From assembly GCA_036172245.1 (NCBI GenBank), contig JAYWIR010000046.1:124001-188000 (forward strand): a stretch of DNA of 64,000 nt. The letters are read 5' to 3'. The DNA comes from Raillietiella orientalis. Taxonomy: Eukaryota. The notes beneath the pieces were generated by a model, which searched no databases, had not been told where the DNA came from, and saw nothing but the letters and a program-made list of their open reading frames with translations. The position numbers were made by a program, and so were the translations under genes. This document shows, piece after piece, positions 25,201 to 50,493 of the stretch. Position 1 is the first letter of the stretch, and each line of letters begins with the position of its first letter.

Positions 25201-25204
25201 TGAT

Positions 25205-25411
25205 CATTCTACCAAATATTGCAAGAAAAGCTGCGCCTATTGTTACTAAAGTCATGAGGGGTCCACCTATCCCCAAAACGTATTTAATGATATTGCATAT
25301 TACTTTAGTAATTGCATCACGATTAGTATTGGTAGCACTGCTCATATGCGAAAAGGAAGTAAATAATATTATAAGAAAAACACTAAAAACTTTCCTAGTT
25401 GTTGGGTTCAT
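25205..25411 (-). pseudogene. virB2: Wolbachia/Anaplasmataceae-like VirB2/TrbC type IV secretion pilin, 3'-truncated
   Basis: Signal-peptide-like N-terminus then KVICNIIKYVLGIGGPLMTLVTIGAAFLAIFGRM, matching the recalled rickettsial VirB2 core (VICNII.YV.GIGGPLMT.VIIGAALLAIFGRMPW). Homology stops at FGRM. Purine-rich AGGG immediately precedes the ATG. Confidence 0.88.
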
Positions 25412-28400
25412 CCCTATATCTTAAATTTAGACATTTGGTTATATCTAAAATAGTATAACCTTTGGTAAAACTAGCATATAAAGCGAGACTAAAAAGTACT
25501 CGACAAACTCCGCCAGCGGGTGACTCATTCATTACTGCCATTAATATCAAGTTTACAAATGTCACCAGGGATTGGTTATGCAGCACACATGATCGTTAAA
25601 AAAACGTATTGGGATGCACGCACTGTTTCATCGCATATGAAGTGAAAGGGTTTAGTAAAGAGAGAGTCGATTAATAGAAGGAATACTGATCAAACAATAA
25701 AAAAGGCTCATGGTTGCTTGTTCCAGATCATGTTATCCTTGTTTCCCCCAAAATCCGATTCTCTCCATGCAGATTAATGTGGCAATCGTAGAGATTCCTC
25801 TAGCAATCAAAAGGCAAATTGGAATTTCACGACTATAATTTCAAGATGTTTTGCTGATGAAAATGCAGCAGCCATAAGTATTACCTTCTTTCAGTCAATC
25901 GCTTTTTGTTGATAGGTACTTCATGAGAACTTTGTCAATGGAATAATAATTACTAAATGTCATCAATATTATTCTGGTTCTAATGATTATGTGTTTGCTA
26001 ATCCGTTTCGCCTTTTTGCTGTGCTCGTTTCTGCATTAATTTAGGATTTTTTGATGCGCGATTCATTCAGCATTATTTCATTAAATGATTCTCTTAGTCT
26101 ATACATATATATGATCTTCAGTGTTCATAAGAATTCAGTATTTTTCTAAAAGTGGTAGAGCAATCCAAATTACTCTTTCAAAGTCATACAAAAGAAAAAT
26201 CTTCCATGACTTTTTAGTTTGAAATTACAGCAAGATCGGACTCAGTTTCACGCTACTCGACTCTTTCTTTGCCTTCTAGCTTCCTCAAGATCATTCAGTA
26301 TTCCTTTTTCAATATTAATTTAATAGTTATTCATCAAATGGATGAGTTTTCTCAATTTATGCTGTAAATTTTTTTCATGTCGAAAATCCTTCAGATAACA
26401 GTCCCGGTACAAGCCTCCAATCGGAATGTTGGATAAAAGATGGTCCACCTTATGAATCTTCTGAAATTGTAACCGATCACGCGTTATCGGAAAGTCTATT
26501 CTGTGATTATGTTCGTTCTTCATACTTTTGTAGGAGTCACCTGTGAGTTGTAGAGTCAGTCAGTACTTTGGGTCAACAAATGACAGATCGTTAGCAATCG
26601 GAGATGTTGAGGTTGATCGTTAAGGAAATTAAAGTCGAAACAAAGGAACCGATTTATCTGGGCTTTCAAAAACAACTTTTGCATTATAAACACTTACACA
26701 CATCCTTGATACTGAATCCTGTTCCTCCTTAAAGTTTGAGGAATAAAGACCTAGCTGATCTTATATGAAACCATGCTTCCATTGTGATCTTTTTAGCAAA
26801 ATGAAGGGATATTCGAATGAAGCACGTGATTTCATAATCTCTGGCGCCATGCAGCGTCCGATCCTTTTGCTAGCTAAAGCGGACAGGAATCCAGTTTGAG
26901 GAATCAGATTCGTGTGCCGTATATTTACAGCCTTGATATGTGTTCCGTCTTGCTTGTCTAATTCTCAGGTCATTAATTAGAAGTGCATTCTGTCATCACA
27001 GGAGATAGAACTCACATCCGTCCTCTAGAGACTCCCTCTGCTTTTATCCTGGATCATTCCAATATCTATCCATCGATTACCTTGTTTTGCAGTTTACTCT
27101 TGTTAGGGTGTGAAAAAAGTATCGATGGATCTTGCAGTATTTCTTAGAACACGTTACAGAATTATTGCCAGTCTTAGACCTTTTCTATCCTATTCCGCTT
27201 TTTTGTTTGACCCCTGACAAATTGATTATCTTGTAAATGATGATCAGCTTACGATTTTCGCAGTTAATTGCCATTCTCTTTGTGAAACCTCTGATTTCAC
27301 TTCGAAAAGTTAGCAGCGAGTCCTTTCCTCTTTATCCATTAGCTTTGGAGCAATTGGATGCGATTTCTATTAGAAACTGTCCTCCACATGTACTAGGAAA
27401 AATCTCATCTCTGCTCTCATTTCGAGCCTACATTCACTTCACTTCCTTGGGCTGAGATCACTTGACCGGACTGCCTTCATCAAATATAAGACATAACTAA
27501 AACAAATGAAACCATTGAAACACGACCAAGTTTGCGAATGGAGTTGTTAAGCTGTAATGACGTGTGAGTGCTGAGATCGCCGATTATATTCCAGTAGCAT
27601 CGATGATTGTATGAACTGCTTTGGAAGGTGTGGGAGTATTAAGTGAGATTCGTTAGGATGAAGCATGTTCAACTGCACCATTCACACTTTCCAAACGAAC
27701 ATGAATATCTTGTCATCATCCAAGTTATGGCACCCTCCGATTACCAAAGGATATCTTCCGTATGGTAAGGTGGAATAAAAAAACTCATCAGATCTGTCTT
27801 CCTTATAGAAAGAGTATTCAAGCTGGAGATTACTTTGGATAGAATACAGTGCAAGGGCTACAGAAGGAAAATGGAGCCATGAGACTGCTCCTAGAGGAAA
27901 AGTAGCCTTGGAAGATAAAGTGTTGGTGAGCAGAGTCCATTAGTTTAAAGAAGCTCAAGATGAATCACATGTTCCCTTGGTAGAGTGCCGGCACGCGCAG
28001 TAGAATTTCTCGTTCCTTTGTGCGACAAGCTATCAAAAAAGAAATTCGTGACAATGGCAAAACGTGGCTCTTAGAGACAGAAACTGAGCATAGTCCATCA
28101 GGGGACATTTGAGAACGTTCAAAACGTCGGTGTATTCTCCAAAGAATTCGAGTGGTCTTTAGAAGATGATTTGTGAAGTCTCTCCTGACCTAATTACAGA
28201 GATGCAATATGGTGCTGCTACTCGCTTGCTTTAATGGAAAGGAGGTAAATAACGAAGAGTAGAGGTCGTTCAGAGGAGAGGACAAAAGAAGATTCATGGT
28301 AATCATTCCAACATTAAGCAGCTTGTCGAGTTCGGGTGATGACATGACATTGCTTGAGACTGCCACCGAGGATAGGGAAGAAATCGCGGGAAATACCCCA

Positions 28401-32300: not shown

Positions 32301-34400
32301 GAGAAAACTCCAGCAACCAGACAGCAGCAGAAAATTTATTGATCAAGGTTTTGGTTGCATGAACCCACTTTTTTTCTATTTCTTATACAATTCTCTCTTC
32401 TCTCAGGAGCACGAACTCCCAATTAGATATCTGTTGTATTTGATGCAACGTGATACCTTCTAGATGAAGTCACTCAATTTCGAGTTGTGGTTCGGGATAA
32501 GTCGTTACGAAAACTTTGTTTGAAAAACAACACAAAATCAATGCTTCCAAGTTTTTGAAAAAACAAATCGATGCAACATCCGGAAATGTTCGCTGCAAAC
32601 ATATGATTGCTATGTGTGGATCGCTTATGGAGATAGTGACTTCACGAAGGTAGGCACATTCGAACAGAGTTGATTTACAGAACTTTTTTTCTGATTTGAA
32701 TGCAGAAAAAACTCTAGTTGTCAACTGGTAGATACGTTTCGGACAGTGCCTTTAGCGTATGATTCTGACTGTATCGTACGCTATTCTTCCCGTTTCTTGG
32801 AAGCGTGATCGGCATCCGAGCTGTCACTGAACTTTGAATGCGATCAGGTGTTCCTCTCTTTCTCTGAATTGGAGAATGCAGGTCCAGTTGCCTTCTGTAA
32901 ATCTTGAAAACCAATCTATGGTAATGATGAGTGTTGATGGTGCTGGTTTCTGCCTGTGCGAGGCGTGGAAACCTCTTCAAGATAACTAAAGGATCATTCC
33001 CACCTGATGGTTTGACCACTTCATAACTGGCTTTGTGGAAATTTTCCTCAGAATCAAAGCCACTGTAAAGTCAGAAGCTGGGGTGGAGGTCAACCCAAGC
33101 CTCTTTTTACTAAGTGCTTCAGTTTGGATGTTGATAGGGAATCGTTCACATGCGTCGCTTTCCGTTCTTTGGGTTTTGGATACTCGAAACGCTCCTCTTA
33201 ATTTGAGTGCTGCTGTTCGAAAGGCAGATGCGATCACATAACACCATCAATGAATGGCGTTCATGATCTGCAATAGGGATCATTCTTCCGGCCTTGGGTG
33301 GTCTCCTGGGATATTTCAACTGGAATGGTTCGCAGCTCACCCTCCGTTTGCTTTTGATCCAGCTTTCAAGGTCAAAAAACGAGTCGAGCAAAACTGGTAC
33401 GTGACGGCTTACTGACGGTATGTTGGCACTTGAGATCGAAACTACTGCTTCTGATTCTATACAGGATTCGCTTGCGTCAAAGAAAGCGGAGAAGCAGTTC
33501 TGCTGTTGGAATTGTCGGCTCCTTCGATTTCCTCTAAAAGACACCGAGTTCCTCGAGGTATATCCTCGATCTTTTTCGGCTCCCTTGGAAGGGTGAAGGA
33601 TTGATGGCAAATGTTGCCCAAGACTACAGCAGAGTCGCCAGTAAGAGCCACACCATTGAAATCTGTCAAACAAACGAAAATGATGGTTGACTCTGCGAGA
33701 AAAACAAAATTCTTAGACTCTTCCCAAAATGCCTCCATGACTTCCATTGCATTCTTTTGAAGAGACAAAACAAAACAAAACAAACGGGACCCATTTTCCT
33801 TTTGTGGGTTTCCTTCTAAGATAATTTCCAGGAAAGGCAGGGTTATGCTTGCTGGTGTTGCTGATTTCTCTCCATGCTGACTAACAGCGATCGTTTGCAA
33901 CAAGGGGAGGAGGAGTCTTCGTTTCCAGGCTCCTCTAGTTGCCATCGCAATGTTCACTCTTGGAGCTCTTTCTTGTTAAACTTTAACAAACGCTGCTTGA
34001 AAAGATTTCCACATAACAGTCTGAACTGGTCGATGTTAACTCTAAACAAAAAACAACAAACCACACATACACGACAAAATGAGTAAAAAGCCTTTTCACA
34101 TTTTTGACCGGGGCACCTCGAAAATGGATATTTCTCGATCAGAACGGACAACAGGTGATTTTTTCTGATCTTTTCCTTCAACTGTTCCACGAACCACCAG
34201 ATATATACCCAGCTCGTGGCTTACAATAGGCGGGCGCATTTACGCGTGTCTCTTCTTCTTCCCGATTAATAGTTTTGGTCTTTTTGAGTTTCTCTGGCTT
34301 TCCTACTATCCCTATCATCAAATACTATGGGTGAATAGCAAACAGCTCCCAATTTATCCAAGAGAGAAATTCGTCTTTTGAGTGTCCCTATTGCGGTATC
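29400..34400 (-). mobile_element. Degraded BEL/Pao LTR retrotransposon (gag, protease, partial RT, integrase remnants)
   Basis: Remnants in BEL order: SITLPFLEIILEGNP (cf. IKLPKLE..FDGNP), ALTGDSAVV, Cys/His knuckle traces, NFGDNLTLAR.LSLEK, IIQEWL, and integrase-like KFS..MLGGIDEHL. PBS-like TGG near 34198. A ~140-bp direct repeat occurs at 30140-30282 and 34253-34383. Confidence 0.55.
30851..30885. repeat. (TA)n microsatellite, interrupted
   Basis: tatatatacagatatatatatatatatatatatata. Confidence 0.9.
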
Positions 34401-36455
34401 CTTAAGTCCTGCAAATCATATCGCGAGCCATGTCCTCGCTGTTTGCTTCCGTTATCTCTGATGCTCTATTCACGTGCCATCCTGCAGTCTGAATTGCCAC
34501 GTTGGCGATTCGGGTGCCATCTCTTAACTTCTCATGGAACTATGGGAAAGACGAACCGTCCCGACAGGTTTCAGCGGACTTGCATTGCGCCCGTATGTAT
34601 GTTTCCACAGGGGAAAAAGAAAACCTGTGTGAAAAGAAGGGAGGCGAAAGCTGTGCATGTATAGTTATCTAAGTTTCTTTCTACGTACTGGTGCACCTGG
34701 CCGACGACAGATGGGGACGTTGTTGGTCAGTATTGCGTAACTCGAAAGCAATGCAACGGAAGAGATCACTGTCACCACTCGATGCTATGTGAATCCCTTC
34801 CTGAAGATACAAACGCGGGGAACGATTGGGGAAAGCGAAGACCGGTCGGAACCTGGCTGGAGCCTGTGTTCCTCTTCCTGCCACCGAGACTGGGATATAC
34901 GGCTGCGTATGCCAAGATCGATGGAAGGAGGTAATTTTCCCCCTCTCCCCCGTGTTTTGTCGCTCTTACTGCGTCCACAGTCGTGTGGGCGTTCGCGGAA
35001 GCAGCTTTTCTTGCAAACCTGGAGCCCCCTTTAGCGCGGGCACGCAGACTTTTCAGCAGAAGGGTAGCTTCGCCTCACTGGCGATGGTAACGATCAGTGG
35101 AGTGGAGTGCGTGGGAGGAGCTCCCGGCGCCAGCATAGGCAGTCGCCCTCGCATTCTTGCACAGAGGTCGCTGCGGCGAGAAGAAGGGAGAGGAAGGGGA
35201 AGTGCAGTGAAGCCTCAGGACGCGGTTCGCAGCTGGGCCCCCAAGTCAACCCTGGATGCTCGGGGGCACTCTGCTTTTTGCGGCGCCATGCGTGCTGCTG
35301 GATCACTCGTGGGAATGGCGGCGCGCCTGCTCGTGCGAAAGACGCCCATCCCATCATTACCGCCCTGCTGCTGTGGCTCGCTCTCGCTCGCACTGGGCTG
35401 ATATGCCAGTGCGCTTGTGGGGCCTGCGGCACCCGCCCAGTGACCTGGCTCAGCTGAGGCCGGTTCTCTCTTCCTCCTCCCCTCAGGGAGCTCACCCCTC
35501 GAAGGGACTCCAGCCAGCCTTCTTCACCCAGGAGGACCTCTTCGTGGTCCAGGGACGGACGGTTTGTGAGCACCGCATTCCCTGCGGCTTTTGCTACCTG
35601 CCCGAGGGGCCAAGACGGGAGTGGAGGAGCTTCCTCATCCTCTTTCTTGTTAGCAGGTGTGGGGGACAGGACTTACAGAAGAGCCCTTTCCGTGCTGTGA
35701 CGCTTCTGTCCTTCCGGATCGCATCGAGCGCAACGGCTGGGAGAGGAATGGACGCCATACCGTGCGGGTGTTCCTCTCCGCTCTTCTGTCTTACGTACCC
35801 GAAGAGTCTGGAGGAGAAGGGAGGGGGGGGGAGGAGTGTCGTTCCGAGCGCTTCCTTGCGGCGATTTTACGCATCCCCTTTTACGGGTTTCCGAAACGCG
35901 CACGGTTCGCAGCTGTCCTGTGGCGCAGGCGCACCCCCTCGGACGCTTGTCGGTGCTTCGTCGTCTCCTCGAAGGAGCGGTCCCTCCCCTGAGGAGAGAG
36001 GGATCTTCTCTCCTAACGCCTGAGCTCCCTCACGTAGAGGGACACCCGTTTTCCCTGTTTGGTGATGCAGGCGCAAGCAGTGCTGCCCTCGCCGGGCTGC
36101 TTCCACCCGCTCTCGGCCCCATCCGTGGTGCGTGGTGTGCGCATGCGCAGGCATGCGAGCGCGACTGCCGGCCGGTCGGGTATGGTTGCGCTCGGTGGGG
36201 ACTGATACGTGCAAGTCGCAGCACGAAGAGCCGCGCTATGCTCACCACGACTGGTCGACCGACCGGGCTGTGCAGCTTCCGAGTTCGAACAAGACCCTCG
36301 GGGGAGGGAGGGGTGACACCAGGAAAAAGTCAGCGTGTCGTCCTTCAGCGTCAGCCCTCCTTTCTCTTGATGTGCCTCCGCGCGTATGTGTGCGAGAGAG
36401 GGAGGAAAGGAGTTTGCAGACGTGGCTACATTTTTAGTCCCCGCAGAAAAAAAAA

Positions 36456-36467
36456 TCAGTGACGTCA
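36456..36467 (+). promoter_or_regulatory. Inr-like TCAGT overlapping a full palindromic CRE (TGACGTCA) upstream of the SLC13 gene
   Basis: TCAGTGACGTCA about 0.9 kb upstream of the SLC13 ATG, inside the CpG-rich domain. The ATG is directly preceded by an acceptor (ttttctag), implying an upstream non-coding exon. Confidence 0.4.
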
Positions 36468-36734
36468 GCGGTTTGACAAGCCAAGTCCCCAGCGCAGTAT
36501 CCGCTGCTGCCGACCGACCGCTCCCGCTTCTCCGGGAGAGGTCGGTCGGAGGCAACAACTTTCCTCCTCCTCCTCCTCACTCTGCTGAGTGCTGGACAAG
36601 GCTCAGAAGGAACCTGTTTCCCGCATGCCGTCCGTCCCTCAAGAGACAGGTCCGCGGACCTTGCTAGCGCACCTCTCCGTGACGCCCTGGGACCACGTTA
36701 ATACCGAGTAATGTCGGTCTTCTTCGGACGCATC

Positions 36735-36769
36735 CTCTCTCTCTCTCTCTCTCTCCCTCTCTCTCTCTC
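36735..36769. repeat. (CT)n microsatellite / GAGA-like tract
   Basis: ctctctctctctctctctctccctctctctctctc. Confidence 0.9.
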
Positions 36770-37373
36770 CGTGGCCTCCCTTGTCCCGAAAAATCTCCAT
36801 CTGCAGTCAGGGCTGCCAGCGTTTCCGCAGCGTGGGAGCATGCTCGTATCGCCTTGAACTTTTCCGGAGAAAGACGTCGAGAGAAACGGAGGGGATCTGG
36901 AAACGAACGAAAGCAGGTCCTGGATTTTCGCATGAAGTTAAGACGAGGAGGGAGGTGAACTCGTGTCTCGGCACCAGGTGTGCATCCTCGGGTACCTGAT
37001 CGGCAAAGTACCGATTCCGCACACCGCCAACGGTGGTCCCGTAGCCAGCGAAGAACTTGTGCGGTTCTCGGGGGCAGGTATGCGAAAGACGGGTTCCCGA
37101 AATGCGCAAGTGGGCCAGCTGACGAGTCCAGGAAAGCACGCCTTCGTTCTTTTCCATCCCGTCCGCAACCACTCGAGGTCTTTCGGTTTCCTTAATCACG
37201 GAAAGCGAATAAATGCCTTCTCAACGATGAATGTTCCTCAGTGTCTCCTTTGACCCGCGGAGTGTGTGCGAGTGTGTGAAGTGCTCCATGCCACCAGCAA
37301 CGTAGCGGGAGCGTGGCACGCTTTCGCAGTGGGATCCGGCAACCCGTCGAGCTTCCTGATTTCGTTTTTCTAG

Positions 37374-40300
37374 ATGGAGCTGAAAAATAACGAAAAGTGC
37401 ATCCGCTCCGGGAAGATCCTTGGAGCCCTTCTGCTGCATTACTGGAAGACGATGGTTCTCATATTGGCTCCTGTGTTGGCTTCTCCGCTTCTTTTCTATG
37501 TGAACACTCAGGTAACAGCCGCCATGTACTTCTTCCTGACGAACCCCCCCCTCCGCCCCCGCCTATCCCGCGAACTTTTGCGGAAGGCAAGCCAAAGGAG
37601 GAAAAAAAAAAGAGGAAGAGGGGTGGGAGAAGGAAAGAAGAGATGCATCTTTAACGAAATCACTGCAAGTCTTTGCCCGAGTCGGAATGGGAGGCAACAC
37701 ATGGCGCGAATGACATACGTAAGGCGGGCGCACGAAATCACGGTTTGCGAAATGCCGACGGAGACGCCGAGTAAGGGGCGCGATCACCCATCAAGGGAGC
37801 TTTCCTTGCCCAGTTGGTACCGCTCCATCCCAGATTGATCCCTTTCTGGCTTACCCAACTTGGTTTCCATAAGTGCAAGAGGTCGATGAACTCTTGTTGT
37901 TACTGTTGTTTAATCAAAAAGCTTAAGAATAAGTAAAGTGGATTACTCCCCTTCGAGCGAGAGGGAACGCCATTGTGCCCTGATCTCTTGCCACATTCCT
38001 TTGTTGCGTTTCTCTGGTCGGTTTGCGTGTTCTGCTGTGGTGGAAAGTAAAACCACTTGAAGTTTGCGTTGGTGACACCTAGTCCTCTGGAGAGCAGCTG
38101 ATGTGAGTGTGGGGAACCTCGATAGCACACGCAGAGACATTCAGCGATGAGCCGCGCATTGCTGCCTTTCGGAATGAGTCGGTCTGCTGCTGCAAGGGTA
38201 GCACATATTGAACCGGAAGTCGTCCCTGCAGGCATTCACGGAAACGCAGGCAGAGATTCAAGTGTGGGGGGATCACACAGAGATGGCACTGCTTGCTATC
38301 GTTATTCAGCTAGCTTCTTTGACGGTATAAAGTGCGTTTGGTCCATTGGTGAGAAATGGACTTCCTAAACACTTTCTCGATTTCTAATTGTGCCGTGGGC
38401 TACTTATGATCACCGCTTTCAGATGGAAGGGGAAAGCACAGGTGAAGAAGCAATAACAAGCAACGAACAATGCCTTGTTCCAAGAACTGCATCCGAGAAT
38501 CCAAAGGATTCAGAGACTTAATTCAACGGGGATGCCATCGTTTTTCTGTTTTATCATTTCCAAGATGTCGTTGTCGATGTTCGTGCGTAAATCCACGACG
38601 ACATGGCACATCCATTCGAACGTGTGTGTGGGTAAACGTCACCCGGCTGCCGAGGTTTCTGGCGTGCAATGTCACCCAAATGAGAGACTCCATCGAACCT
38701 GGGATGCGATTCAACTGCGTCTGAGTAGATGCTAGAATTGCCTTTTCCTTTTCTGTTCTTTATAGCTAAAAAGAGCTTTTCCCTTAGGGGAAGAAAATGC
38801 TTCACACTGCACTCGGTCCACCACACGTGTATTCCACATGCTGCGTGTACCTTGTAGCTCCAAAATGGCAGCGAACAGCACCGCCATTCGCCGTCATTTT
38901 TCCTCTGCTAGCGTTGAAGGGTTGTCTTCCAGGACATGGTTGTGATGCTGTATAAGTTACCCCTTGAAGGTTTCCGTTTGCAACCAGAATCAACTGGACA
39001 TTGACGTTCGTTTGCATCCAGGCTTTTTCGCTTTGAGCTCCAACTCCCGCGCTTTCGTCCAGGACTCCTCACTTCTGTGAAGCACCCCATTCATCTGTTG
39101 AGTCTAATGTGTTCCCTGCTTGTTGTGTGACCTCCCTCTGGAGTGATGGATCTCGGCGTCCCGCGCGAAGCATCCTCCAAGCGCAACCCGGACTGCGGCT
39201 GATGCGAGCGAATCCCGTTGTTGGGGAGAAGCAGATTCCCTGCGCCCTGAACAGGATGGGGGGTTTCATGAGTGCGAGAGCAGGGGAAGGGAACCCCGTT
39301 TTGCCGTCGTAGCATCGATTGTACATTGCAAAAGGCGGGGGCGGGATGGGGTCGGAGGAGGAAAGGAAGGACTGGACATGGGGAAGGGGAAGGGGGGAGG
39401 GGACGGTTGTTGTTCACTCTCCTCCTTTCCGCCTCTTTCCCCCTCCCTCCCCATTCCTGCGCGGGAGGCATCTCAGGGAACGCGGGAGGTGGAAACCGAA
39501 CCGTCGCGGTTTCTCCGGCTCCGCTGGTCGCCAGGGATCCCGGCGGAGACGGAACGACTGGGATCAGGGTGATGGCGTCGTCGCCTCTGGCGGCGGAGGT
39601 AGAGGAGGGTCCTCCCTTGGGATCCTCCCCTGGCGCGTGCGCGCGTGTGGTGAGCCCCCCCATCCGGGCTCGCTTCCCCGTTCCGGGCACGGTCCCCCGC
39701 TTCCCTTCGTTTTCTCCTCCCGCAGGAGGCGAAGTGCGGCTGGGTGGGCGTCATCATGGCATCCTACTGGGCGTTCGAGGTGGTTCCCTTGCCGGTGACA
39801 GCGCTGATGCCCGTCTTCCTGTTCCCGCTGACGGGCATCATGGCGACCAAGGAGGTCACGAAGGTATACATGAAGGAGACGGTGATGATGTTTCTGGGCA
39901 GCCTGATGATGGCCCTGGCCATCGAACACAGCAACCTGCACAAGAGGCTCGGACTGAGGATGCTCAGCCTGATGGGCGTCCGCAAAAAGTGGTAGGTACG
40001 CAGGCCCTCCATGCGCACTGACTCCTCTCCCCTCTCTCCTCCGCTCCTTCCCGACCTCACTTGCCCTCTCAGGCTGCTCCTGGGCTCCATGCTGAACACC
40101 ATGTTCGTCTCCATGTGGATCTCGAACACTGCGGCCGTGGCCCTGATGCTGCCCCTGATGGAGGCCATCCTGGAGAATTTCGAGACGGTAGGGGAACGGT
40201 CGGAGGAAGAGGTGGGAGGGCGGCTCTGCGCCAGAGGCTCCATCCTTTCCTCCCGCTCCCTCTTTCAGGAGCGCGCCGTCTGGGAGCTTGCCGGGCGAGG

Positions 40301-43300
40301 GAGTTTCCCGGAGGACTCCGTCGTGGGAGTGCCGCTCCCGCCCTCTGGCGGCTCCGAGAGGTACCTCCAGTCGGAACCGGACCCTCCCCTCAGGAAAGGA
40401 GGCTCCAAGGATTTCCGGAAGGTTCTGATGCTGGGCACGGTCTTCGCAGCGAACATCGGAGGCACCAGCACTCTGGCGGGAACCAGCGTCAACCTGGTGC
40501 TCAAGGGGGTCATCGACACGTAAGCCGCCGGCACAGGCGCCCTTGCGCTCCAGGCTTGGGCGCCCGCGGGGAGGTCCCCCCACTCCTGGGGATGGGGGAG
40601 AGGCGGAGGCCATTCACCGTCTTCCGGAGAACCTTCATCTCCCTCCCTCCTCCGCACGGGTGCCGGAACGCCCGGTATGAGCCTGGGCCCGGGTACCAGG
40701 CAGCGAGCCTCTCGCAAGTGAGGGAGTGGAGGAGGAGAAGAAGGTAGGAGGGCGCTGCTTTTGCCCTGGAAAACAGGAAGGCTGGCCGCCCACTGGGGCA
40801 GCCCGCTCTTCCCCTCGCCCCTCTCCTTCGAGGCGCTTTCCGCTCGATATTGGGCAGAGTCGACGAAAGGAGCGGGTGAGGGTGAGGTCCCCAGCTCCTC
40901 CCTTGCCACCGGGGATGCTCCCCCTTCTATTCCCAGCGCCAATATCCTCCTCCCTTTTCTCCCCCGCAGGTACTACAAGGACTGCAGGGATCTCAACTTT
41001 GCCAGCTGGATGATGGTCACCGTCCCTGGGATGCTGATCTGCGTCTTCCTGACCTGGGTGGTCCTGCTGCTGCTCTTCCAGGACTGCACGTGAGTACCGC
41101 CGCTCTTTCTCCCCCCCCCCCAATCCTCCACGAGTGCGCTCGCGCTCGTCACTTGATCCCAGACTCGCGCCGGTGCGCCGCCGCCTCTTCGCCAAAGACT
41201 CGGCAGGCAGCACCGGACGTTCCCGGAGCAGTCGCCAGACGTTGCCCAAGAGTTTCCCCTTCCACCTCGACGTGGCGCCTTCCTCTCGTCGTGGGCTGCA
41301 TCCTCGCAGATAGGGCGATTCCTTGGGGGAAGAAGAGGGTCGCTCTTGCTGTTCCCTCTTGCGACGCTGCCTCGAGGCACCTTCCAGTTCGGAAAGCGAC
41401 ACAGCTCTCCCCCTCCTCTAGACTCCGGAGCTGTGGGAGCGACCATGAGAACGAAAAGATCGAGGAAAGGATCCGGCTGTCCCTGCAGAACATGGGAAGC
41501 ATGAGCCGCCACGAGATCTCCGTGTCCGTTCTGTTCTTCCTGCTGGTGACCTTGTGGTTCTTCCGGGATCCGGGCTTCGTGAAAGGCTGGGCCCCTCTCT
41601 TCAAAGCGTAAGTAGCCTTGTCTGACCGACCTTATTCTGACCTCTTCACCGTCCTGCTGTTCCTTCCTTCGACGCAACCAGCTGCGTCCTTCGCCCCCCT
41701 GATCCACCGCTCCCTCTCCCCTGGCAGCGCGGACGCGCGCACCTCGGGGCATTTCCTCCTTCTCCCTTCTTTTCCCCTCTCCAGCTCGTCTGCCTCTCAG
41801 ACTTCGTCAGTCACTTTCCAGCGCCCTCAGAAAGACTCGAGTGAACGGCGGGATCCCGATGACGGTGGGGGAAGGGGGAAGGAAGATGCAGCTTCCGCAC
41901 CCCTTCCCTTCCGATCCTCCCACCCAATCTTCTCTGGGACTCCTCCTGTCCTCTCGCTAGACCACCTTGTATGGCACTGCTGCCCCTGTCGTCTGTTTTC
42001 ATTTTAGTGGCGTAGATGACGCCACGCCTGCCATTTTCATCATCTTTCTTATGTTCATCCTCCCTGTCGATCCTCAGGCGCCCTGGAGGAACTGGAAAGG
42101 TACGTTGCATGATCTTTTCCGGCTTTGCCGCCTCAGGGTCCTCCAGCGTGGTCCTTCGCTCTTGTTCGCGGCTGGAACTCCGGCCGCCTCGCTCCGAGCG
42201 ATCGGAACCTCCCGAGGCTCTTCTTTCCGACTTCGGGACGGGGTAGTCGAGATCTACTGTGCGCCCTGCTCGCCCCCGGAGCAGGAACCTTTGAAGATCG
42301 CGAAAACGGCTTGCGGCTGGAAACGGGGGAGAGCAGCTGTTCTCCTTAGAGAAACGGAGGGAACAACGCCATCTCTTCAGTTCAGTGATGATCGGAAGAA
42401 GTTGGGCAGGCCAAAAAACGTGCTCTCTGGGAGGTCCGCGGGAGCTTCATTCCGATCCGTCTGCGCAGAATTTCACGTGAACGGAAGCGGGTCATTTCCT
42501 TCCGTGTCGTCCCCGTGGCACTTCCGAACGGGTGTCCAGGCACGCAAGACCTCGAGGTGATGCTAGTCGCAACTCCAAGCTTGATCGCTCCTCTGGATGC
42601 GCGCGCACGACCAAGGCGAATCCCGAGCTGCCTCTTCGCGCCGCCTTCGTTCGTCGCATCGCGGAGGTGCGTCCGGCCAACGTTCGCGTGAGCGGTCAGG
42701 TGGCGCTCGCGTCGTTTGACTTCCCTGGCAGTTGATCCGGGAAACTGCTTTGCGTCCGAGTACGCCGCGAGATTTCGACCCGACCACGGACGCACGACGA
42801 GGAGCCGTGAATGCAAACGGGGCTCGCGGACGTGCAGGCAGCATCTCGCCCGAGCGAGATACTGTCCGCCACCTCGCACAGGACGTCGGCGACGGCAGCT
42901 TCCTTTTACCCGTCCGAGACGCGAAACATCGACTTGTCACGTGACTTTTTCTTTAGGCGAACGATCGATTCAACGCATCACGGTACCACTGTTAGGGTCT
43001 GGTTTCGACTTTATGAGGGTGCCACCAGCATGGCACGAATCTGGACCCTGACAAACATTTTGCGGTACTGGAAACGGGAAAAGAGCACAGTTGGGCTGAT
43101 AGGAAAAGCGATCTCGAAGACAAAGGAAGGATGCATGCTCCCCATCTTGGAAAACCATCACTGGTCGGAATCGAGACAAGATTGGGAAGGGGGAGAAGAA
43201 GAGGCTGAGTGGAAATTTCCCGAAGTATTCCTCCGGGCGATCGATCTCTCCTTGACATGGTCGAATGGCCTGTTTTCCCGGATGCAAAAGTTCCAGATTT

Positions 43301-46300
43301 CAGGACGTCTATCCGTCGAGTTAGTGATTGTCCGAATACCCCTTCGAGGAGGACTTCCTAGCCGAAGAGGCGAACGCCCTTGTTCTTTCAGGAGGAAGGA
43401 ACGGAAAGGGAGGGTGTTCATGACGAACGTCCGAAATCTGATCTTCTGGCTGGAACCTGGCACGGTCAAGGATTCATGCATGCTTGTGTTTCGCAAATGA
43501 CTTGCAGGAAGGTGCAAGTGGATGAACAGAGGAGTTTCCACCATGTTCTTCTCTTGTTTCTTCGCCTCGTCAACTCCTCCACAGATTTTCCGAGGTTCTT
43601 CCGTCGCAAGCCGCGACCCATTCGATGTTTCCGATAAGCATCCCGGAAGCATGGTTTGTTCGCGTCTATTTCTGATGCACACTACCTGCTTCTTGGGGAT
43701 TTTGCATTCCCTTAACCTTTCGTTGTTTCTTGGGTCCCACAACACTTGCCCTCGCAACGCGAGGATCAAGAAATCCCGCCAGTCCTCGATACTTGCTCCC
43801 GCTCTTCGCCTTGTCTCTTCCGACATCGCTGACGAGTACTGGTGGTGAGGTCGAGCGCCGTCGCGTACGACTGCTTCCCCTTGTGCCTCGATCCGGCTTC
43901 AGCTTCGGATCTGCTCCTGGAATCACCTAGCCGTAGGCTACCGAATCTAAGCGTTTCTATGAGGGATTTCTATCCCGGATTTGGGTCTCGACAGCTTGTC
44001 GTGCCTCTCCGTAAGCAGCGTTTAGTCGTCGACGCTCCTGTTCGATTCTGCCCCTCTTTCGCACCAGCTGCACACGCAGACCGAGGCATCCCTAGTGGCA
44101 CTCAACCTCCTGCCCGCGCGGGCAGGGGGTGGATTGGCTCTCCCCCTGGACGAAACAGGCGACCTGCGGCCCGAAAGTTGCAGAGTAGAAAACGTTTCCA
44201 CGTCCGATGCGGCCCACCTGGAAGGTGATCCTCTCGGTAGGGATGTTGTTTTCCGACGAGGGATGTCCACTCTGCCTTGCGTTGAACTGTGCGTACTCTT
44301 GAGGGGATTTCTTTGCAGAGCCAGTGTATGATTAGAGGTGTAAGAATAGTTGTGATTCCCGTACGATTTAGCTTAAGAAATATCACTGATACCTAATGAT
44401 TTGTCGTTGGAAATGCCATGATTAAATTTGAAAACCGCTAAGACGAGACCTAGAATTTGTGATTATGTCGTTCAAAAAGATGACTCATTGAAATTTTGGC
44501 ATATTTTAAGGGCTTCTTCGCAAGCTTACTTAATCAATCATACTTATTAATGGAAGTTTTGCGGGACGCTAATCCTGGTGGTACTTCCATCCAGGAGCAC
44601 AAGGTAGCTTACTGCCTTGGCGCAATCAAGCCCAAAGGGAGTAACCTGAAACTGTGTCTGAAATTTGTGTATATGTTAAATGAGGAACGTGTCGATATGA
44701 GCTGACGTGCCTCCCGCACTAAAATCGACGATCACAGATAACTGACTCAGTCAGTGTATCTAGGTGTTATCTCAAGCCTCATGAAACATTACTGATCCGT
44801 GTTCTAAATAATATTGGAATGGTACAGTCTTGAAGGCACAGCTGCAGACATCTCAAAAGAAAAATTTTTTTTTTCCTTCTTTCGCTGATCGCTGATGCAA
44901 AAGAAAACTCCAAACCAATTCACCTGAAACTGGAACCGCTGACTGTTGCAAGAATAAGGAATTGCTGATCGGAGCAGTTCGGAGGTCCTCGCTATGGAAA
45001 CGCGTTCATTGCAATTCACAGTTTTTCGCTGTCAGTGTTGAGAATGTCACAGCTTATGTTAAGGCTAATCAAAAGTCAATTGAAGAGTTTGAGCATGATG
45101 AAGATAGTAATAGTGACAAGTGAGTTCCGAGATGTTTGCACTCGCAAATTTTTTCTCCAATGGCACAACTTGGATAAATCAGAAAACACACACACACAAA
45201 AAGCTTGGATCCTATGGATTCTGCGAGTTTGCAACAACTTCATTGAGTCAAGCCCAGAGTTTTTTTTTTTTTTAGTCCGTTATAAAAGTCGAAAATCCTA
45301 CATAGAACACTATAAATTTTAAACAATCTGAAGAACGAAAGCTTGATGTTGTTTTCAAAGAAATGAAAAGCAGCTACGGAAAACTCCATGCATTCTATGG
45401 TTGTCGCAGTTGGACGGAGAGATTCACCAAGTGCAGCAACGAACGCATCATTACTCTGCATAATTGAATCAAATTAGTGCAGCCTTGAGACAATACAATA
45501 AATGCAATTCGTTGATTTACCTGGAATGAAGCATTGATTTCCACTTGCATAAACGCCCGAGTGCACTCCAGTCATTTGACGGAATTTGCGTTTTCGGACA
45601 ATCGCTCCTCAGGATGTCCGTAAAGGTTACGTAGGTTTTTTTTTTTTGAAGTATCGAGACCGAGACGTCCTCGGTCTCTTGTCCAAGTCATCTTTTACTA
45701 TTCCAGTTTTCTTTCTTTGTTTACTTTTCTTAAAAAAACCGGAACAGCTTCGTATCGGTGTCAGGAATGTTCAAGGTTCATGGATTTCCAATGTTTTTTT
45801 TTTTTATAAAAGTATTTTTTCTTCTAAGAAAGAATACTTTTATAAATCGAAGGAAGAGGAGTTCATTGCTTTTATAAAGTGAGTTTTAGAAGAGGAGTTT
45901 TATAAAGTGAACTATAAGTATGAGAATGTGTTTTTCTGATTTGCTGCTTGCTTTTGATGCTAATCATACAAAGCACGTAACAAATGGAGCGAGCTGGCTC
46001 AACACAGATAATTCGTGTTGATTAACAAAAAGCAAACTTTCTCATAGGGCATGAAATTCCATGCTTGCATATCAGGTAATCTACTCAACTTACTTATGAC
46101 TCATGTGAATCGTGCATTCTGCGACAATTTTTTTTAACCGATCATCCTTGATCACTTTTTAAAAACAAAACAGACGATTCCACATTTCTGAGTTTCCAGA
46201 TTGTGTGATCTGCAGTCCATCGTTATATAGTTTTTCTGGGGCTTTAAACTGGTGCATGCGTATTCATGCGTATATATTTATGTATGGTTTTCCTCCTGTA

Positions 46301-49300
46301 TACATTTACAATCAAACACATCCACTGATGCACGTACAAGTGCTCATATGCGTACTCGTGTGATTTCGAAAGCATGCAAAATATGTTCACATTCGTATTT
46401 TAATGTTTTTTTATTGATGCAGCAATTATCTTTTCCAGTGGTTTATCATGGTGGAAGAAAGGCAATTACGTCGAGTCCAGTATTGCATAACTGGAACATA
46501 ATTCATGAAAAGTTGCCTTGGGGCACCTGCATCCTGATAGGTAAAGGAGTCTAATAAAAAGAAGAAATTTATCTCATTGACGATTATCTAATTCGTAAAA
46601 TTTCTTATTAATTCTAGGGGGTGGTTTCGCTTTGTCTGAAGGAACCGTTCGTTCCGGTCTGTCAGAATGGATTGGAAGACAAACTGCTTTCTTGCAGATA
46701 GGTTCACCTAGTGCTCTAATTCTCATTGTAACGGTGGTGATTTCCTTTTTGACCGAAGTTACTTCCAACGCAACCACGGCTACTATTTTGCTTCCTATAT
46801 TAGCGAAAATGGTACACCTCGTCTCTGTTTGCTTTGTATGCAGATGAGTAAAGAAATGCTCCCACAGGCGTCAGAGTTGCATGTGAATCCTCTGTTGGTA
46901 CTGGTACCAGCAACTTTGAGTTGTTCCTACTCCTTCATACTGCCCACAGGGAATCCTTCTAATTCTCTGGCCTTTGAAGCTGGAAATATGGAAGTTTCAG
47001 ATATGGTAAGTCCTGTACCTCCTTGAACCTATCAAACGTACACATTGTAGCTTTTGAGCATGAAACAGTATTTCCAAAATAAGTAGGAATTTCATTGATT
47101 TAGCTTATAGTTGTCCTCAGAGTCTCCGTTTTTCCATGGTTATTATATTTTTTTTCTTACTACAGCGCTTCTGTTCCCCTAAATCAGAATGCCGATAATA
47201 TTTTAAGAATATTCCGCGGAAACCGAAGAGCATTTTGCTCGGATTGCCGGGAAGTTCGAAAAATCCAGAACACAGAAAACAGTATTTCGGAAATTGATTG
47301 ATGGGCAGAGCATTATTATATTTCCAAGGACAGTTAAAGATGGATTTCCGTTTCCCAGAAAGTAAACAGTGGAATACAATCATAACTTGGTACTGCCGAT
47401 GAATTGCAAAGCCGCAACTCCAAGCACCTCCAGCCAAAAAACGGCAGAAAGCTACAAAGCAAACTTACAGAGCAATAAACAAAAAGGAAATATCCATAAT
47501 TCTGTTACTTATAGTTTCTACTAGGCTGATGTAGTGATAAATCGCAAATACATCGTAACGTGTAATTCTATTCATCCTTTCGTTTAATTCTGAAGCCTCA
47601 TATTTCTAGATTTGCTAAACAAATTAGCGAGGATAAAACAAGCTAATAATACTATGGCTACCGTACTGAATCTAATTGATTGAAAGATTAGCAATCAGCT
47701 CAGATTGCATGCAATATATATATATATACACTGCATATTCATGATGTATCTTGTTTGCACATTGATTTTATATTGTTTATTAATGGTGAATGAGAAAAGT
47801 AAGGTTACGTCATGTTTTTTTTTAATGGTTAGTATTGAAAAAAGTCTGGTTCTTCAAACAGAATCCAAACAATATTCAGATTCTTAAAAGTGGATTCTTA
47901 TTTTGGGACAAGGAACTGTTGTTAAGTGATAAGTATGTAGTATTCTAAGTACAATAAGATTCGTTGGCAAAATTAGTCTAAATGAGTTTAGCTTTTCCGT
48001 CATTAATCGTAAGTGTTGCATGTCACTGCACAAATCAAACGAAATGTAAAATGCTTTTTCATATGCACTTCAGACAAATAAACCATTCATATTAGACATG
48101 GTATGCATTAGTTTGGTAAGAGAATTGCTTTAGCAATTTTAGAAGTTTTAAAATCGTTTACCTAAGGTTTACATGAGAAAACGAAATCGAAAAATCGGCC
48201 CAGGCAAATATGATTTAGGAGTTTATTGCAAAATTTGGGTACGTCATAAATTAAAAATTTGATTTTAACTTGATAATTGTTTTTGTTTCGTAAAAAAAAA
48301 TACATCTGAAATGCGTTGAAATAAAGTGTCGGAGGCCTTGTGGTTAAAGCTTCCGCGTGTGCACCATGCGTCGCGGGTTCGAATACTTCGGCAGAAACTC
48401 TGACGCCACTGCGTCGTCGGATTCCGAGTTTCTCCTGCAACGGCGCTGGTTGGCTGAGACATTCGGGCGTGGCACCGGAGGTGGATTAAGCCGGAGGCCC
48501 CCGATGAAGGTCGGAACAATGGCAGTCGACCTTTGGGTCCTCCCAGGAATCAAGGAGTGGGGAGTTTCCCCCTCCTGTCCTGCAACGGAGAGCGGACCCC
48601 CCCCACCGGGGGACCCTCCGAGTCGTCGCCTCTTCACAGAGTGCACAAGGAAGCGAGAGCGATTTCCTGCGGGAAGCTGCAGCGCCCCTTCTGAGTTTCG
48701 GAAGCGTCCCTTCGGGGTTCTCTTCAGAGGAGTGAATAAAGGAGCGGTTCCCTTGAGGGTTCCCTCCGGAGAAGAAATTCCTACAAGCGGGTCCTTTCCG
48801 GGTTACCTTCGGAGAAGTTAAAATGGAGAGGACAGCCCCTCCCCATTGGTGGGGGGGTGTCCCTCCGGAGAGAATGAGGAAGGAGGATTCCCTTCGGGGT
48901 TCCCCTTCGGAGACAACCAGGGTGGGAGGTGCGATCCCCCCCGTCCGGGGGGATCCCTCCCCAAGCGTGAGAGGAACGGACTCCGAGCCCTTCCTGGATT
49001 CATAGGACGGACCCCCATCCCGGGGTGCCCCCTATCCTGAAGAATTACACGTCCCCCTGCGGGTTGCCGCGGGCGGAGGGGCGTGGAAACAAAATAGTGT
49101 GTTTAATGTTTAAAAAGAGCCACGCGCGCCGCGAGGCACGCGACCGGCTCTGAGGTACTTAGCGAACCAAAAAAAAAAAAAAGAAAACTCTTGAAATAAA
49201 GTGTAGTGCAGTTAGGCATGCATTTGTCTATGCATGCCTAACTGCATTTAGGTGCCAAGGGGGAGCAGGGAATTGCATGAACAAGAAAAGCGAGATGGAC

Positions 49301-50493
49301 GGATGAACAGAAAACAACGGCGCTAATTGCAATGATCTAAAGATCAGAGAGAAGCTATATATGAGATACATATGAATAAAAGTATATGCCATATGCGTGA
49401 GTAGATGCTGGCAGTAATTATGGCAAACAAACATGAAAGGATGAGAAATGAAGGTTCGAATCTGCAAGGCGAAATTTTAGGGCTTGGGATTTGTTTGTAA
49501 ACAAATATAGCAAATTTTATCAAAAAGTCAGTATCTACACGGCTATGCAAATATTTGTGGGCAGTGTGGAAGACAGCAGCAAACTAGTTGTGGAGTGAAA
49601 TAAACTCTCAAATCACTGAATTCGCAAGGTGCGAATACTTGGGCAATACGCCACGATAAGAAAGCGATGTTAATCACTCAAAAGTTTTTTGAAGTATGAG
49701 AACGAGAGTGGATTTGCAATTTGCACGTAATGTTTGATGGCGCGGGTTTGAATATAGTGGCTGCAGGAAAACCAAGAGCTCACTACGCAAACCATTGAGT
49801 GCTTTGATGAATTAAGTCACGTCTTTAATGGTTGTAGAATTACCACATTGCTAAATGCTAATGCAGTTACGGTAAATAAAGATCTGCACAGCCAGTCTGT
49901 TGAATTTCAAAACACAATGTTTTGTAAGCCATTTCAGAATGTATAGTTCTAAAGAATAGTCGGTGCAAGTAGGATAAAGTGATCATGAAGCAAAAGGTTT
50001 TGCATGGGGAGATCATTACTCGGAAGATTCGATATTCGAACTGAGATTACTCAAGTATTACCATCTTGATTAAACAAAGAAATGCCAAGTTGAAGAGCGG
50101 TTATAAAAAACATATGAATAAGCTATAAATAATTTAACATATGAATAATGCGATAAAACAGAAAGGATAAGTAAGGAAAATTGCGTTTAGGAATGTGCTA
50201 ATTCTTAACTTTCAGTAGCATAATTTCAAGCCTCCAACATATATATATTCTACTCTTTACAAATCTGTGCACGATACACATGCATTGTCAGTCACTTAAA
50301 TACCAGCTTGCCTTGCAAAAGCACAAAAACTAATAGATGTGTTTCATTTTAGGCTAAATCAGGATTCATAGTGAAAATCATATGCCTTGTTGTTGCAAAC
50401 ATTTGTATGCAAACACTTGGAGTGTATGTGCTGCATGCAAATACTTTTCCTACTTGGGCAATGGATAATTCAACTGCAACTCCTCCCAGCTAA
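37374..50493 (+). CDS. SLC13/DASS family Na-coupled (di/tri)carboxylate or sulfate transporter (INDY-like)
   Basis: Exons 37374-37511, 39726-39991, 40073-40187, 40269-40519, 40970-41089, 41422-41607, 42008-42099, 46439-46540, 46618-46811, 46868-47005, 50353-50493, all in phase. Motifs EVVPLPVTALMP, AIEHSNLHKR, SMWISNTAA, ANIGGT, LWFFRDPGF..GW, KLPWG..LIGGGFAL, TEVTSNATTA..LPI, FPTWA. Confidence 0.93.
38450..38750 (-). mobile_element. Ty3/gypsy integrase zinc-finger remnant in SLC13 intron 1
   Basis: FTHEHRQRHLGNDKTEKRWHP resembles the AHEGHLGxxKT...WP H2C2 region; degraded. Confidence 0.3.
43200..43560 (+). mobile_element. Ty3/gypsy RT N-terminal remnant in SLC13 intron 7
   Basis: KFPEVF, RKERKGRVFMTNVRNL (cf. 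KKDGKLRLCVDYRKL) and FHHVL (cf. GFHQI) in order; frameshifted. Confidence 0.3.
48330..49190 (+). mobile_element. tRNA-derived SINE-like retroelement, ~860 bp, with a 14-bp TSD, in SLC13 intron 10
   Basis: Exact TSD TTGAAATAAAGTGT at 48316-48329 and 49191-49204. Box A-like AGGCCTTGTGG (48333-48343) and box B GGTTCGAATAC (48376-48386). 3' stem-loop 49117-49150 and A-rich tail 49169-49187. No TTTT run seen on the sense strand. Confidence 0.88.
49207..49246. repeat. Perfect 17-bp inverted repeat with 6-nt loop
   Basis: TGCAGTTAGGCATGCAT-ttgtct-ATGCATGCCTAACTGCA. Confidence 0.92.

Follow-up and report, generated by a model that had tools for sequence, protein, structure and literature searches.

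A probable LINE-mobilised, SINE-like retroposon of 861 nt with a variable core of palindromic minisatellite units

The locus and the inserted element

The window, that is, the whole 64-kb stretch of DNA that was analysed, represents an animal genome of invertebrate type with a Wolbachia-like insert. The genes named in it by PDB searches are Mak16 and a paired-type homeobox gene. A LAMTOR5 search had 0 matches, and a protein atlas returned nothing better than integrases, at scores up to 0.82. It also holds an insertion bounded by a 14-bp TSD, TTGAAATAAAGTGT, which has two exact matches in the window where 0 are expected. As these copies lie only at 48316-48329 and 49191-49204, the insert runs from 48330 to 49190, and its length between the TSDs is 861 nt. 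Both the exact duplication and these limits are as the initial annotation had given them. The insertion is likely to be a recent one. The parts of the locus are as follows.

48316..48329, unstranded: 5' TSD copy TTGAAATAAAGTGT, exact, one of the two matches in the window
48330..48392, + strand: 5' head, with the B-box-like GGTTCGAATAC (48376-48386) and the D-loop-like GTGGTTAAAG
48393..48697, + strand: 5' body, GC-rich, with stem-loops at 48393-48433, 48493-48543, 48553-48576 and 48586-48620 (folds of -14.2 to -22.9 kcal/mol)
48698..48915, + strand: core array of homologous hairpin units, seen by covariance model R1, repeat families D1 and D3, motif enrichment, covariation and unit-number variation
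48924..49086, + strand: 3' body, with C-run/G-run stems at 48924-48961, 49002-49035 and 49048-49085 (-29.0, -14.7 and -26.2 kcal/mol)
49117..49150, + strand: terminal stem-loop (-20.9 kcal/mol) capped by a GCGA loop; 18 nt separate it from the A tail downstream
49169..49190, + strand: A-rich tail made of A14, G, A4 and CTC; the A-rich run is 49169-49187, and the match of one X1 contig extends to 49187
49191..49204, unstranded: 3' TSD copy, the exact second match of TTGAAATAAAGTGT

The A tail and the terminal GCGA stem-loop had been described beforehand, and both are indeed present. The stem-loop is a candidate recognition site for the reverse transcriptase of a partner LINE. Within the 64-kb window, the element occurs in one copy only. 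Neither a partner LINE nor a LINE sharing the tail of the element was found in the window, and the Pfam searches gave no reverse transcriptase. The nine stop-to-stop ORFs of at least 70 aa in the element all lacked a Pfam family at E<=1; thus, the element is non-coding, and a protein-coding retrogene was ruled out.

It had been claimed that the element begins with a tRNA head carrying Pol III A and B boxes, and this was not confirmed. ARAGORN finds 0 tRNAs, and Rfam gives 0 matches on the head (48322-48420), even at E<=10. The A-box consensus, with up to one mismatch, has no match in the head. The motif GGTTCGAATAC, which lies about 47 nt into the element, is a B box with one mismatch, and such matches occur at chance frequency (6 found in the window as compared to 7.9 expected). 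A relaxed cloverleaf at 48325-48396 appears only with the ARAGORN setting -ps80, which is also at the level of chance, shuffled windows giving 35 matches as compared to 33 in the real one. The absence of TTTT from the + strand of the element, on which the initial annotation had remarked, was confirmed; as evidence, however, it is uninformative, because 39% of 2000 mononucleotide shuffles are likewise without it. The head may plausibly derive from a tRNA. As a Pol III head is not demonstrable, the RNA may also have come from Pol II transcription or read-through. On direct reading, AATAAA was not found in the last 50 nt of the element, which speaks neither for nor against a Pol II origin.

Hairpin units, pairing and fold stability

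The element had been pictured as an array of about 12 related hairpins. All of the 13 listed stem-loops do fold alone, at -4.3 to -30.2 kcal/mol, with bulged stems of 7-17 pairs, but homology is confined to a few of them. The covariance model R1, built from four core units, gives strong scores of 34.1-46.2 bits only to the units at 48698-48733, 48740-48775, 48783-48818 and 48880-48915. It gives a weak score to 48827-48873 (12.6 bits) and a marginal one to 49047-49078 (9.0 bits), and none of the remaining listed hairpins stands above the background matches elsewhere in the window. Only four to six units (four strong and one or two weak) are demonstrably related.

The core units are about 36 nt long, with a start-to-start spacing of 42-56 nt and a GC content of 56-68%. 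Their outer stems pair GGAG with CTCC or GAAG with CTTC, and a purine linker, GGAGA, comes next. The repeated unit itself is real: GGGTTCCCTCCGGAGA, with up to three mismatches, has five matches in the window, four of them inside the element, against 0.23 expected, and a repeat search gave one family of five copies of 32 nt. In repeat family D2, 48593-48616 has 71-75% identity to 48932-48955 and 49008-49031, and the 3' body hairpins 48924-48961 and 49002-49035 are members of this family. The arm motif that most units were said to share is less widespread, its 3' arm, GGGWYCCYTYC (up to one mismatch), being found on the + strand of 5/12 body units and its 5' arm, GRAGNGGWYCC, on that of 2/12. 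Two C(UUCG)G loops were also reported, and units 48701 and 48879 do carry them. No tandem array was called by TRF, as the units are too diverged and unrelated hairpins are interspersed among them. The GC-rich block at 34-44 kb of the window shows no BLASTN similarity to the element and only background matches to R1; a relation between the two was ruled out.

In an alignment of the six related units, which was fitted to the structure and whose members are paralogues within one element, 82.7% of the cells are paired, as compared to 74.2±3.1 in shuffles and 32.7-70.2% in slid alignment controls. The doubly changed cells number 7, a level reached by 0/500 shuffles; double changes fall in 4/9 pairs, and the score for covariation, 0.378, compares with 0.192±0.057. 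When MAFFT and RNAalifold were applied to 8 units, only a 4-pair apical stem was recovered, since that sequence alignment is not structure-aware. Among the six units there are compensatory changes, but between the window copy and the copy in sequencing run X2 there are 0 compensatory double changes among the 15 affected pairs listed (4 wobble-kept and 11 broken), a count that is biased, as it uses the window's own fold and a partial list of the differences. The template pairs are 35/37 in both of these copies alike. In unit 48783, two pairs are regained in other copies through the changes 48784 C>G and 48805 A>C. The covariation among the six units hints that the pairing itself is maintained; DNA-level palindrome maintenance or shared descent would explain it equally well.

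Local structures at or below -12 kcal/mol are as many as in dinucleotide shuffles (12 in the element; 10.3±1.2, maximum 13, in 100 shuffles), but the energy is better than theirs. The summed local-structure energy has z = -2.84 (+) and -2.86 (-), and the whole-element MFE has z = -4.31 (+) and -2.54 (-) with 20 shuffles per strand. The 13 hairpins together amount to -231.4 kcal/mol (+) and -222.4 kcal/mol (-). The shuffle-like count and the near-equal strand energies indicate that the richness in hairpins comes largely from the GC composition. As the local z values are alike on both strands, the excess stability is not specific to the RNA strand. The extra stability of the element is moderate and locally equal on both strands, in line with palindromes at the DNA level. 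Bulged stems of 7-17 pairs are short for known dsRNA sensors, and a decoy for such sensors was rejected on this ground.

Relatives of the element and comparable systems

Of the public sequencing runs, only two, X1 and X2, contain parts of the stretch, at small shares (0.16 and 0.10 of words), and no RNA run is listed. From X1, 97 contig pieces lie on it, of which 1, 17, 33 and 46 have a likeness of 99%+, 95-99%, 90-95% and <90%, respectively. From X2, one 955-nt contig covers 48361-49176, and 25 loose letters extend its head to about 48337 (by eye); thus, this contig starts and stops at the element's own ends. The depth of X1 is 0 in 48311-48347. When the X2 copy is compared with the window copy, the segment with the terminal stem-loop is the best conserved, differing at 4 of 140 nt as compared to 27 of 438 and 18 of 211 elsewhere. 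At the 12 joints listed (11 in X1 and 1 in X2), 36-227 nt between unit boundaries are missing or exchanged, and ten X1 contigs have another unit in the place upstream of 48700. On the sequence of these contigs, the element is a member of a multi-copy, diverged family with a variable unit number.

Known families were searched as well. At the gathering threshold, Rfam gives no family in the whole window; a 7SL/Alu-type match was not found either. Near the element there are three sub-threshold matches at chance level, one of them to mir-185 with 23.1 bits, where the gathering score is 60. A known structured RNA, ribozyme or viral element was ruled out by Rfam. The other two of these Rfam matches, to MIR9481 and IBV_D-RNA, fall on an inverted repeat that flanks the element. 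Scans with the tail and with the head gave 0 matches in a viral contig collection, as did the two-unit pattern and the tail in a metagenome contig collection and the two-unit pattern in a genome contig collection. The single-unit pattern had 36 matches in viral contigs, which were dismissed as chance, BLASTN showing only a 17-22 nt seed in common. The open-access literature searched yielded no account of a SINE that carries a hairpin array, and sequence strings from the element had no match in open-access papers.

Among known systems, the element has in common with tRNA-derived SINEs its non-coding nature, its division into head, body and tail, an A tail and TSD of the sort that LINE-mediated insertion leaves, and its multi-copy occurrence. 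Like them, it bears a B-box-like motif, the GGTTCGAATAC of the head. Unlike them, it has a head that ARAGORN and Rfam do not recognise as tRNA, and its body is a hairpin minisatellite rather than a conserved core or a LINE-derived segment. A SINE is, in the defining passage of SINEBase (PMC3531059), relatively short (<700 bp), and the element, at 861 nt, is above this limit. Its 3' stem-loop resembles those of stringent LINE/SINE pairs, as far as a passage of PMC5135761 describes them.

Another kind of likeness is to SVA, LAVA, PVA and FVA, which a passage of PMC4432496 presents as hominoid-specific VNTR composite retrotransposons with central GC-rich units of 30-50 bp; in the same passage, the VNTR domain of gibbon LAVA determines the mobilisation efficiency. 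The element shares with SVA/LAVA a non-autonomous and, in its own case putatively, LINE-dependent way of life, a poly(A) end, and remodelling at the DNA level with varying unit number and order. It does contain a VNTR array, short and degenerate, of 4 strong, 1 weak and 1 marginal unit with 56-68% GC. However, the 5' hexamer/Alu and primate-derived 3' modules of SVA/LAVA are lacking, and there is no sequence relationship to these elements, which are built of primate Alu, SINE-R or L1 pieces. The element is also much shorter, has about 4-6 related units and possibly a Pol III-type head, and belongs to a genome of invertebrate type. What is alike is the design alone, and the element is not a member of the group. 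According to passages of the review PMC9659126, tandem repeats borne by TEs are common, an example being the insect DINE-1 Helitrons with their central tandem repeats. In a similar manner, the element is putatively dispersed and is non-autonomous, with an internal variable tandem-repeat block; unlike DINE-1 Helitrons and DNA transposons, which are without an A tail or LINE-type TSD, it bears the hallmarks of retroposition.

Origin of the element

With a probability of roughly 0.7, the element is a non-autonomous, LINE-mobilised, SINE-like retroposon of 861 nt with a variable palindromic minisatellite core. A tRNA-like head, now decayed, would plausibly hold an internal Pol III promoter from which the element is transcribed. 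The RNA, with the head (48330) at one end and the A tail at the other, would then be reverse-transcribed at a nicked target by the enzyme of a partner LINE, for which the terminal stem-loop and the A tail are the likely handle. To judge by the hallmarks, insertion by this enzyme would have produced the 14-bp duplication. The GC-rich middle may be regarded as a degenerate VNTR-type minisatellite of palindromic units of about 36 nt, together with other GC-rich stem-loops. The core array would gain, lose and swap units at the DNA level, so that copies differ in unit number, as the joints in other copies show. The hairpins would stem primarily from the palindromic repeat units and the GC composition, and they may also help RNA stability or mobilisation. 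What speaks against this explanation is the hint given by the covariation among the six units, which a purely neutral minisatellite would not predict. The SINE-like reading, in particular, is opposed by the length of 861 nt, above the <700 bp limit, and by the Pol III head that is not demonstrable. The negative TRF result and a window in which no partner LINE was found count against the explanation as well.

The length and the head are the very points that would suit a 5'-truncated autonomous LINE, of which only a long, repeat-bearing 3' UTR is left and which relied on its own machinery without a Pol III head; the TSD, A tail and terminal stem-loop are, moreover, equally typical of LINE 3' ends. 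Such an origin is rather unlikely, as no match to a reverse transcriptase or any other protein family lies in or beside the element. Further, the X2 contig begins about 7 nt from the 5' end of the window copy (by eye) and ends in an A run. This start and the zero X1 depth at 48311-48347 suggest, among the contig ends listed, a shared discrete 5' boundary, for which contig ends in repeats are weak evidence. The same contigs bear on the proposal that a cellular non-coding transcript or 3' UTR gave rise to a processed retrocopy or template-switch chimera, which would not propagate itself. The poly(A)-type tail, the TSD and the unproven head agree with it, but the 97 diverged X1 pieces and the near-full-length X2 copy, with other flanks and unit composition, speak for a repeated and evolving family, which leaves the retrocopy extremely unlikely.

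The initial annotation had favoured a structured Pol III RNA whose bulged hairpins were selected as multiple sites for one protein, the RNA serving as scaffold, sponge or decoy for proteins of the LINE or the host. Such an RNA might even raise its own mobilisation. It would account for the six units staying paired through compensatory differences (4/9 pairs with double changes), for the restored pairs of unit 48783 (48784 C>G and 48805 A>C in other copies) and for the whole-element fold, with z = -4.31 (+) against -2.54 (-). A precedent for a functional central array is the VNTR of gibbon LAVA, which sets the mobilisation efficiency according to the passage cited (PMC4432496). Nevertheless, the related units number just 4 to 6, shuffles have as many local structures and both strands show the same excess stability. 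The comparison of the window with X2 gives 0 compensatory double changes among the 15 affected pairs listed, and the covariation alignment is structure-fitted, its units being paralogues of one element. Selection of this kind is very improbable, and a scaffold, sponge or decoy role for the hairpin array finds no support. By analogy with LAVA, one may also conceive of a Pol III-headed, LINE-dependent VNTR-composite of invertebrates whose paired array would recruit copies of a LINE or host protein and set mobilisation; this, too, is decidedly doubtful.

If the LINE-mobilised, SINE-like reading is true, one more family of LINE-dependent non-autonomous retroposons is added, which is useful for repeat annotation. 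The element would be slightly unusual and basically an ordinary selfish element, its mild interest lying in the length beyond the formal SINE limit and in the variable hairpin minisatellite core. To our knowledge, such a variable hairpin/VNTR-core design is well studied only in the primate SVA/LAVA elements. The array of SVA/LAVA affects both expression and mobilisation, and an invertebrate example that is amenable to experiment could be used to probe what such arrays do. The exact TSD makes the insertion useful as a likely recent or polymorphic marker.

The insertion and its relatives

The element at 48330-49190 is probably (about 70%) a recent insertion of a retroposon that is non-autonomous and depends on a LINE. 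In the window, the 14-mer TTGAAATAAAGTGT occurs exactly twice, at 48316-48329 and 49191-49204, against an expectation of 0, and the insert bracketed by the two copies measures 861 nt. The bounds and the exact 14-bp target-site duplication (TSD) proposed in the initial annotation thus hold. The insert is closed by an A run (49169-49187), upstream of which lies a 34-nt stem-loop (49117-49150) with a GCGA loop and an energy of -20.9 kcal/mol. Pfam searches at E<=1 gave no match for any of the 9 ORFs of at least 70 aa inside the insert. Across the window no Rfam family attains its gathering score, and just three sub-threshold matches were seen near the element. The exact TSD, the A tail, the 3' stem-loop and the lack of coding capacity characterise non-autonomous RNAs that have undergone LINE-mediated retroposition.

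BLASTN finds one copy within the window, and no relatives were found in the viral, metagenome and prokaryote-genome collections. A small share of the element's 31-mers (0.16 and 0.10) is present in two coded public sequencing runs, X1 and X2, whose contigs were aligned to the stretch at a likeness of at least 80%. X1 gave 97 contig pieces, 81 of them only partly on the stretch; the likeness is 99% or more in 1 piece, 95-99% in 17, 90-95% in 33 and under 90% in 46. From X2 came a single 955-nt contig lying over 48361-48571, 48608-49045 and 49037-49176. Its 25 unaligned letters, judged by eye, prolong the head to about 48337, and therefore the contig begins and ends at the element's own ends. 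The match of one X1 contig stops at 49187, and X1 depth is 0 across 48311-48347. These data point to a repeated element of discrete extent, of which related organisms carry many diverged copies.

The X2 copy differs from that of the window at 4 of 140 nt in the tail, 27 of 438 in the body and 18 of 211 in the 5' part, the tail being the best conserved. At the 12 listed joints (11 in X1, 1 in X2), 36-227 nt are skipped or replaced between unit boundaries, and ten X1 contigs carry a different unit upstream of 48700. The array thus varies in unit number and content, in a VNTR-like manner.

The hairpin array

About 12 related hairpins had been described in the body. All 13 listed stem-loops fold alone (-4.3 to -30.2 kcal/mol), and the repeated unit is real: repeat finding gives families of 32 nt (5 copies), 24 nt (3) and 12 nt (4), and GGGTTCCCTCCGGAGA, at up to 3 mismatches, matches the element 4 times, when 0.23 matches were expected across the entire window. 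The relatedness, however, is narrower than claimed. A covariance model built from four core units and run unfiltered across the whole window scores high (34-46 bits) only at those units, which start at 48698, 48740, 48783 and 48880. It gives 12.6 bits at 48827-48873 and 9.0 bits at 49047-49078, and the remaining listed hairpins do not rise above matches elsewhere in the window. Of the 12 body units, 5 carry the proposed 3'-arm motif (up to 1 mismatch) on the + strand and 2 carry the 5'-arm motif there, and TRF called no array. A second, looser family (D2) comprises the hairpins at 48586, 48924 and 49002.

With a span limit of 60 nt, the element holds 12 non-overlapping local structures of -12 kcal/mol or lower, much like its 100 dinucleotide shuffles (10.3±1.2, maximum 13). 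The energies are moderately better than those of shuffles, with z = -2.84 (+ strand) and -2.86 (reverse complement) for the summed local structures, and z = -4.31 (+) and -2.54 (-) for the full-length MFE (20 shuffles each). Summed over the 13 hairpins, the energy is -231.4 kcal/mol for the + strand and -222.4 for the - strand. By these measures, most of the hairpin richness comes from the GC content of about 60%. The moderate excess of stability beyond shuffles is real; at the local level it is strand-symmetric, which is expected of DNA palindromes and not of an RNA-specific fold.

Compensatory changes were observed among the units of the element but not between the window copy and that of X2. 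In the model-based alignment of six related units, 82.7% of cells are paired; shuffles give 74.2±3.1, with 2 of 500 as high as the real alignment, and sliding the partners drops pairing to 32.7-70.2%. Double changes occur in 4 of 9 pairs and in 7 cells, and 0 of 500 shuffles have as many doubly changed cells; the outer stems read GGAG/CTCC or GAAG/CTTC depending on the unit. Retained pairing potential among these paralogous units is a genuine signal, within the bounds of six sequences, a structure-fitted alignment and shared descent in one element. When 39 listed X2 substitutions (of about 45; indels ignored) were mapped onto the hairpin folds of the window copy, 10 fell outside hairpins and 13 at unpaired positions. 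Of the 15 pairs affected, 4 were kept as wobbles, 11 were broken and 0 compensated, a tally skewed against X2 by reference folds that had been optimised for the window copy. With the unit template on the four core units, 35 of 37 pairs form in either copy, and 48784 C>G and 48805 A>C, common to X1 and X2, restore pairs broken in the window copy. The picture between copies is thus neutral.

Head, known kinds and competing explanations

The Pol III A and B boxes reported for the head were not confirmed. ARAGORN detects no tRNA in the window, Rfam gives no match on 48322-48420 even at E<=10, and, with up to 1 mismatch allowed, no match to the A-box consensus falls in the head. The one-mismatch B box GGTTCGAATAC (48376-48386) is at chance frequency, with 6 such matches in the window against 7.9 expected. 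A Cys-like cloverleaf (48325-48396) appears only when the ARAGORN threshold is lowered to 80%, and takes 5 flank bases; this setting yields 33 matches in the window against 35 in shuffled windows. By eye, the head has the look of a decayed tRNA, with a D-loop-like GTGGTTAAAG, a 5-bp anticodon-type stem and a T loop, a resemblance only. TTTT is indeed absent from the element, as had been remarked, but it is equally absent in 39% of shuffles.

The proposed build would comprise a possibly Pol III-type head and, at the centre, a variable GC-rich minisatellite made of palindromic units. The conserved terminal stem-loop and A tail would be the probable handle for a partner reverse transcriptase; recognition of a 3' UTR stem-loop has been shown for stringent-type LINEs (PMC5135761). 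The element works as SINEs do. At 861 nt it exceeds the SINEBase length limit of <700 bp (PMC3531059), and it is filed as SINE-like because of this length and an unproven Pol III head. Its architecture parallels that of SVA/LAVA, the hominoid VNTR composite retrotransposons. These carry (PMC4432496) an array of GC-rich 30-50-bp repeats remodelled at the DNA level, which in LAVA determines mobilisation efficiency. The element lies outside that family, since no sequence is shared and the family is described there as hominoid-specific. Internal tandem repeats are common in transposable elements (PMC9659126). No printed description of the element was found in the open-access literature searched, where 0 papers matched its sequence strings. 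Overall, the element is a real, tidy retroposon insertion, whose hairpin-minisatellite core is unusual, not unprecedented.

Of the other explanations, a 5'-truncated LINE 3' UTR is the least improbable, though unlikely; the discrete, repeated element in X1 and X2 is weak evidence against random 5' truncation. The initial annotation proposed a selected, multivalent RNA scaffold. Its observation is partly confirmed, while this functional interpretation is unsupported and we consider it improbable. A one-off retrocopy is more improbable still, as the many diverged copies in X1 and X2 argue against it.

Genomic neighbourhood

The window is animal nuclear DNA, with stop-to-stop ORFs matching Sec8, Mak16/L28e, Cdt1, LAMTOR5, a paired-type homeodomain and an SLC13-type transporter. 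GC content is 46% in 48001-50000 against 36% and 32% in the adjoining bins. A 10-kb block at 34000-44000 reaches 55-63% GC, the genome elsewhere being at 28-46%. The SLC13-type exons show a sharp GC contrast within one gene:

39654-39992, 39996-40520 and 40886-41608, + strand: SLC13-type sodium:sulfate/citrate transporter exons, within the 10-kb GC-rich block
46599-46844, + strand (same as the retroposon): further exon of the SLC13-type transporter family, in AT-rich DNA

About 1.5 kb separate the last detectable exon from the retroposon downstream of it, which shares its strand and may sit in intergenic DNA, a last intron or a 3' UTR. Within the animal DNA are also two bacterial-type ORFs, one of the TENA/THI-4/PQQC family (24705-25136, +), with 69-74% protein identity to Wolbachia and Rickettsiales genomes, and one of TrbC/VirB2 pilin type (25157-25420, -). 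The pair (24705-25420) probably stems from an old transfer of Wolbachia DNA into the host nucleus, and suggests an arthropod or filarial nematode as the host.

Both flanks of the insertion carry features of their own. A perfect 17-bp inverted repeat, TGCAGTTAGGCATGCAT, with a 6-nt loop (49207-49246) begins 3 nt past the 3' TSD. No further copy exists in the window, where a search at up to 3 mismatches matches only its own two arms, and it drew two sub-threshold Rfam matches; it may represent a small foldback remnant or a feature of the target site. Upstream, 48222-48288 (67 nt) is the sole match of one X1 contig (depth 18.8), which has two small insertions there and unrelated sequence on either side, and may be another short dispersed repeat adjoining the insertion site.
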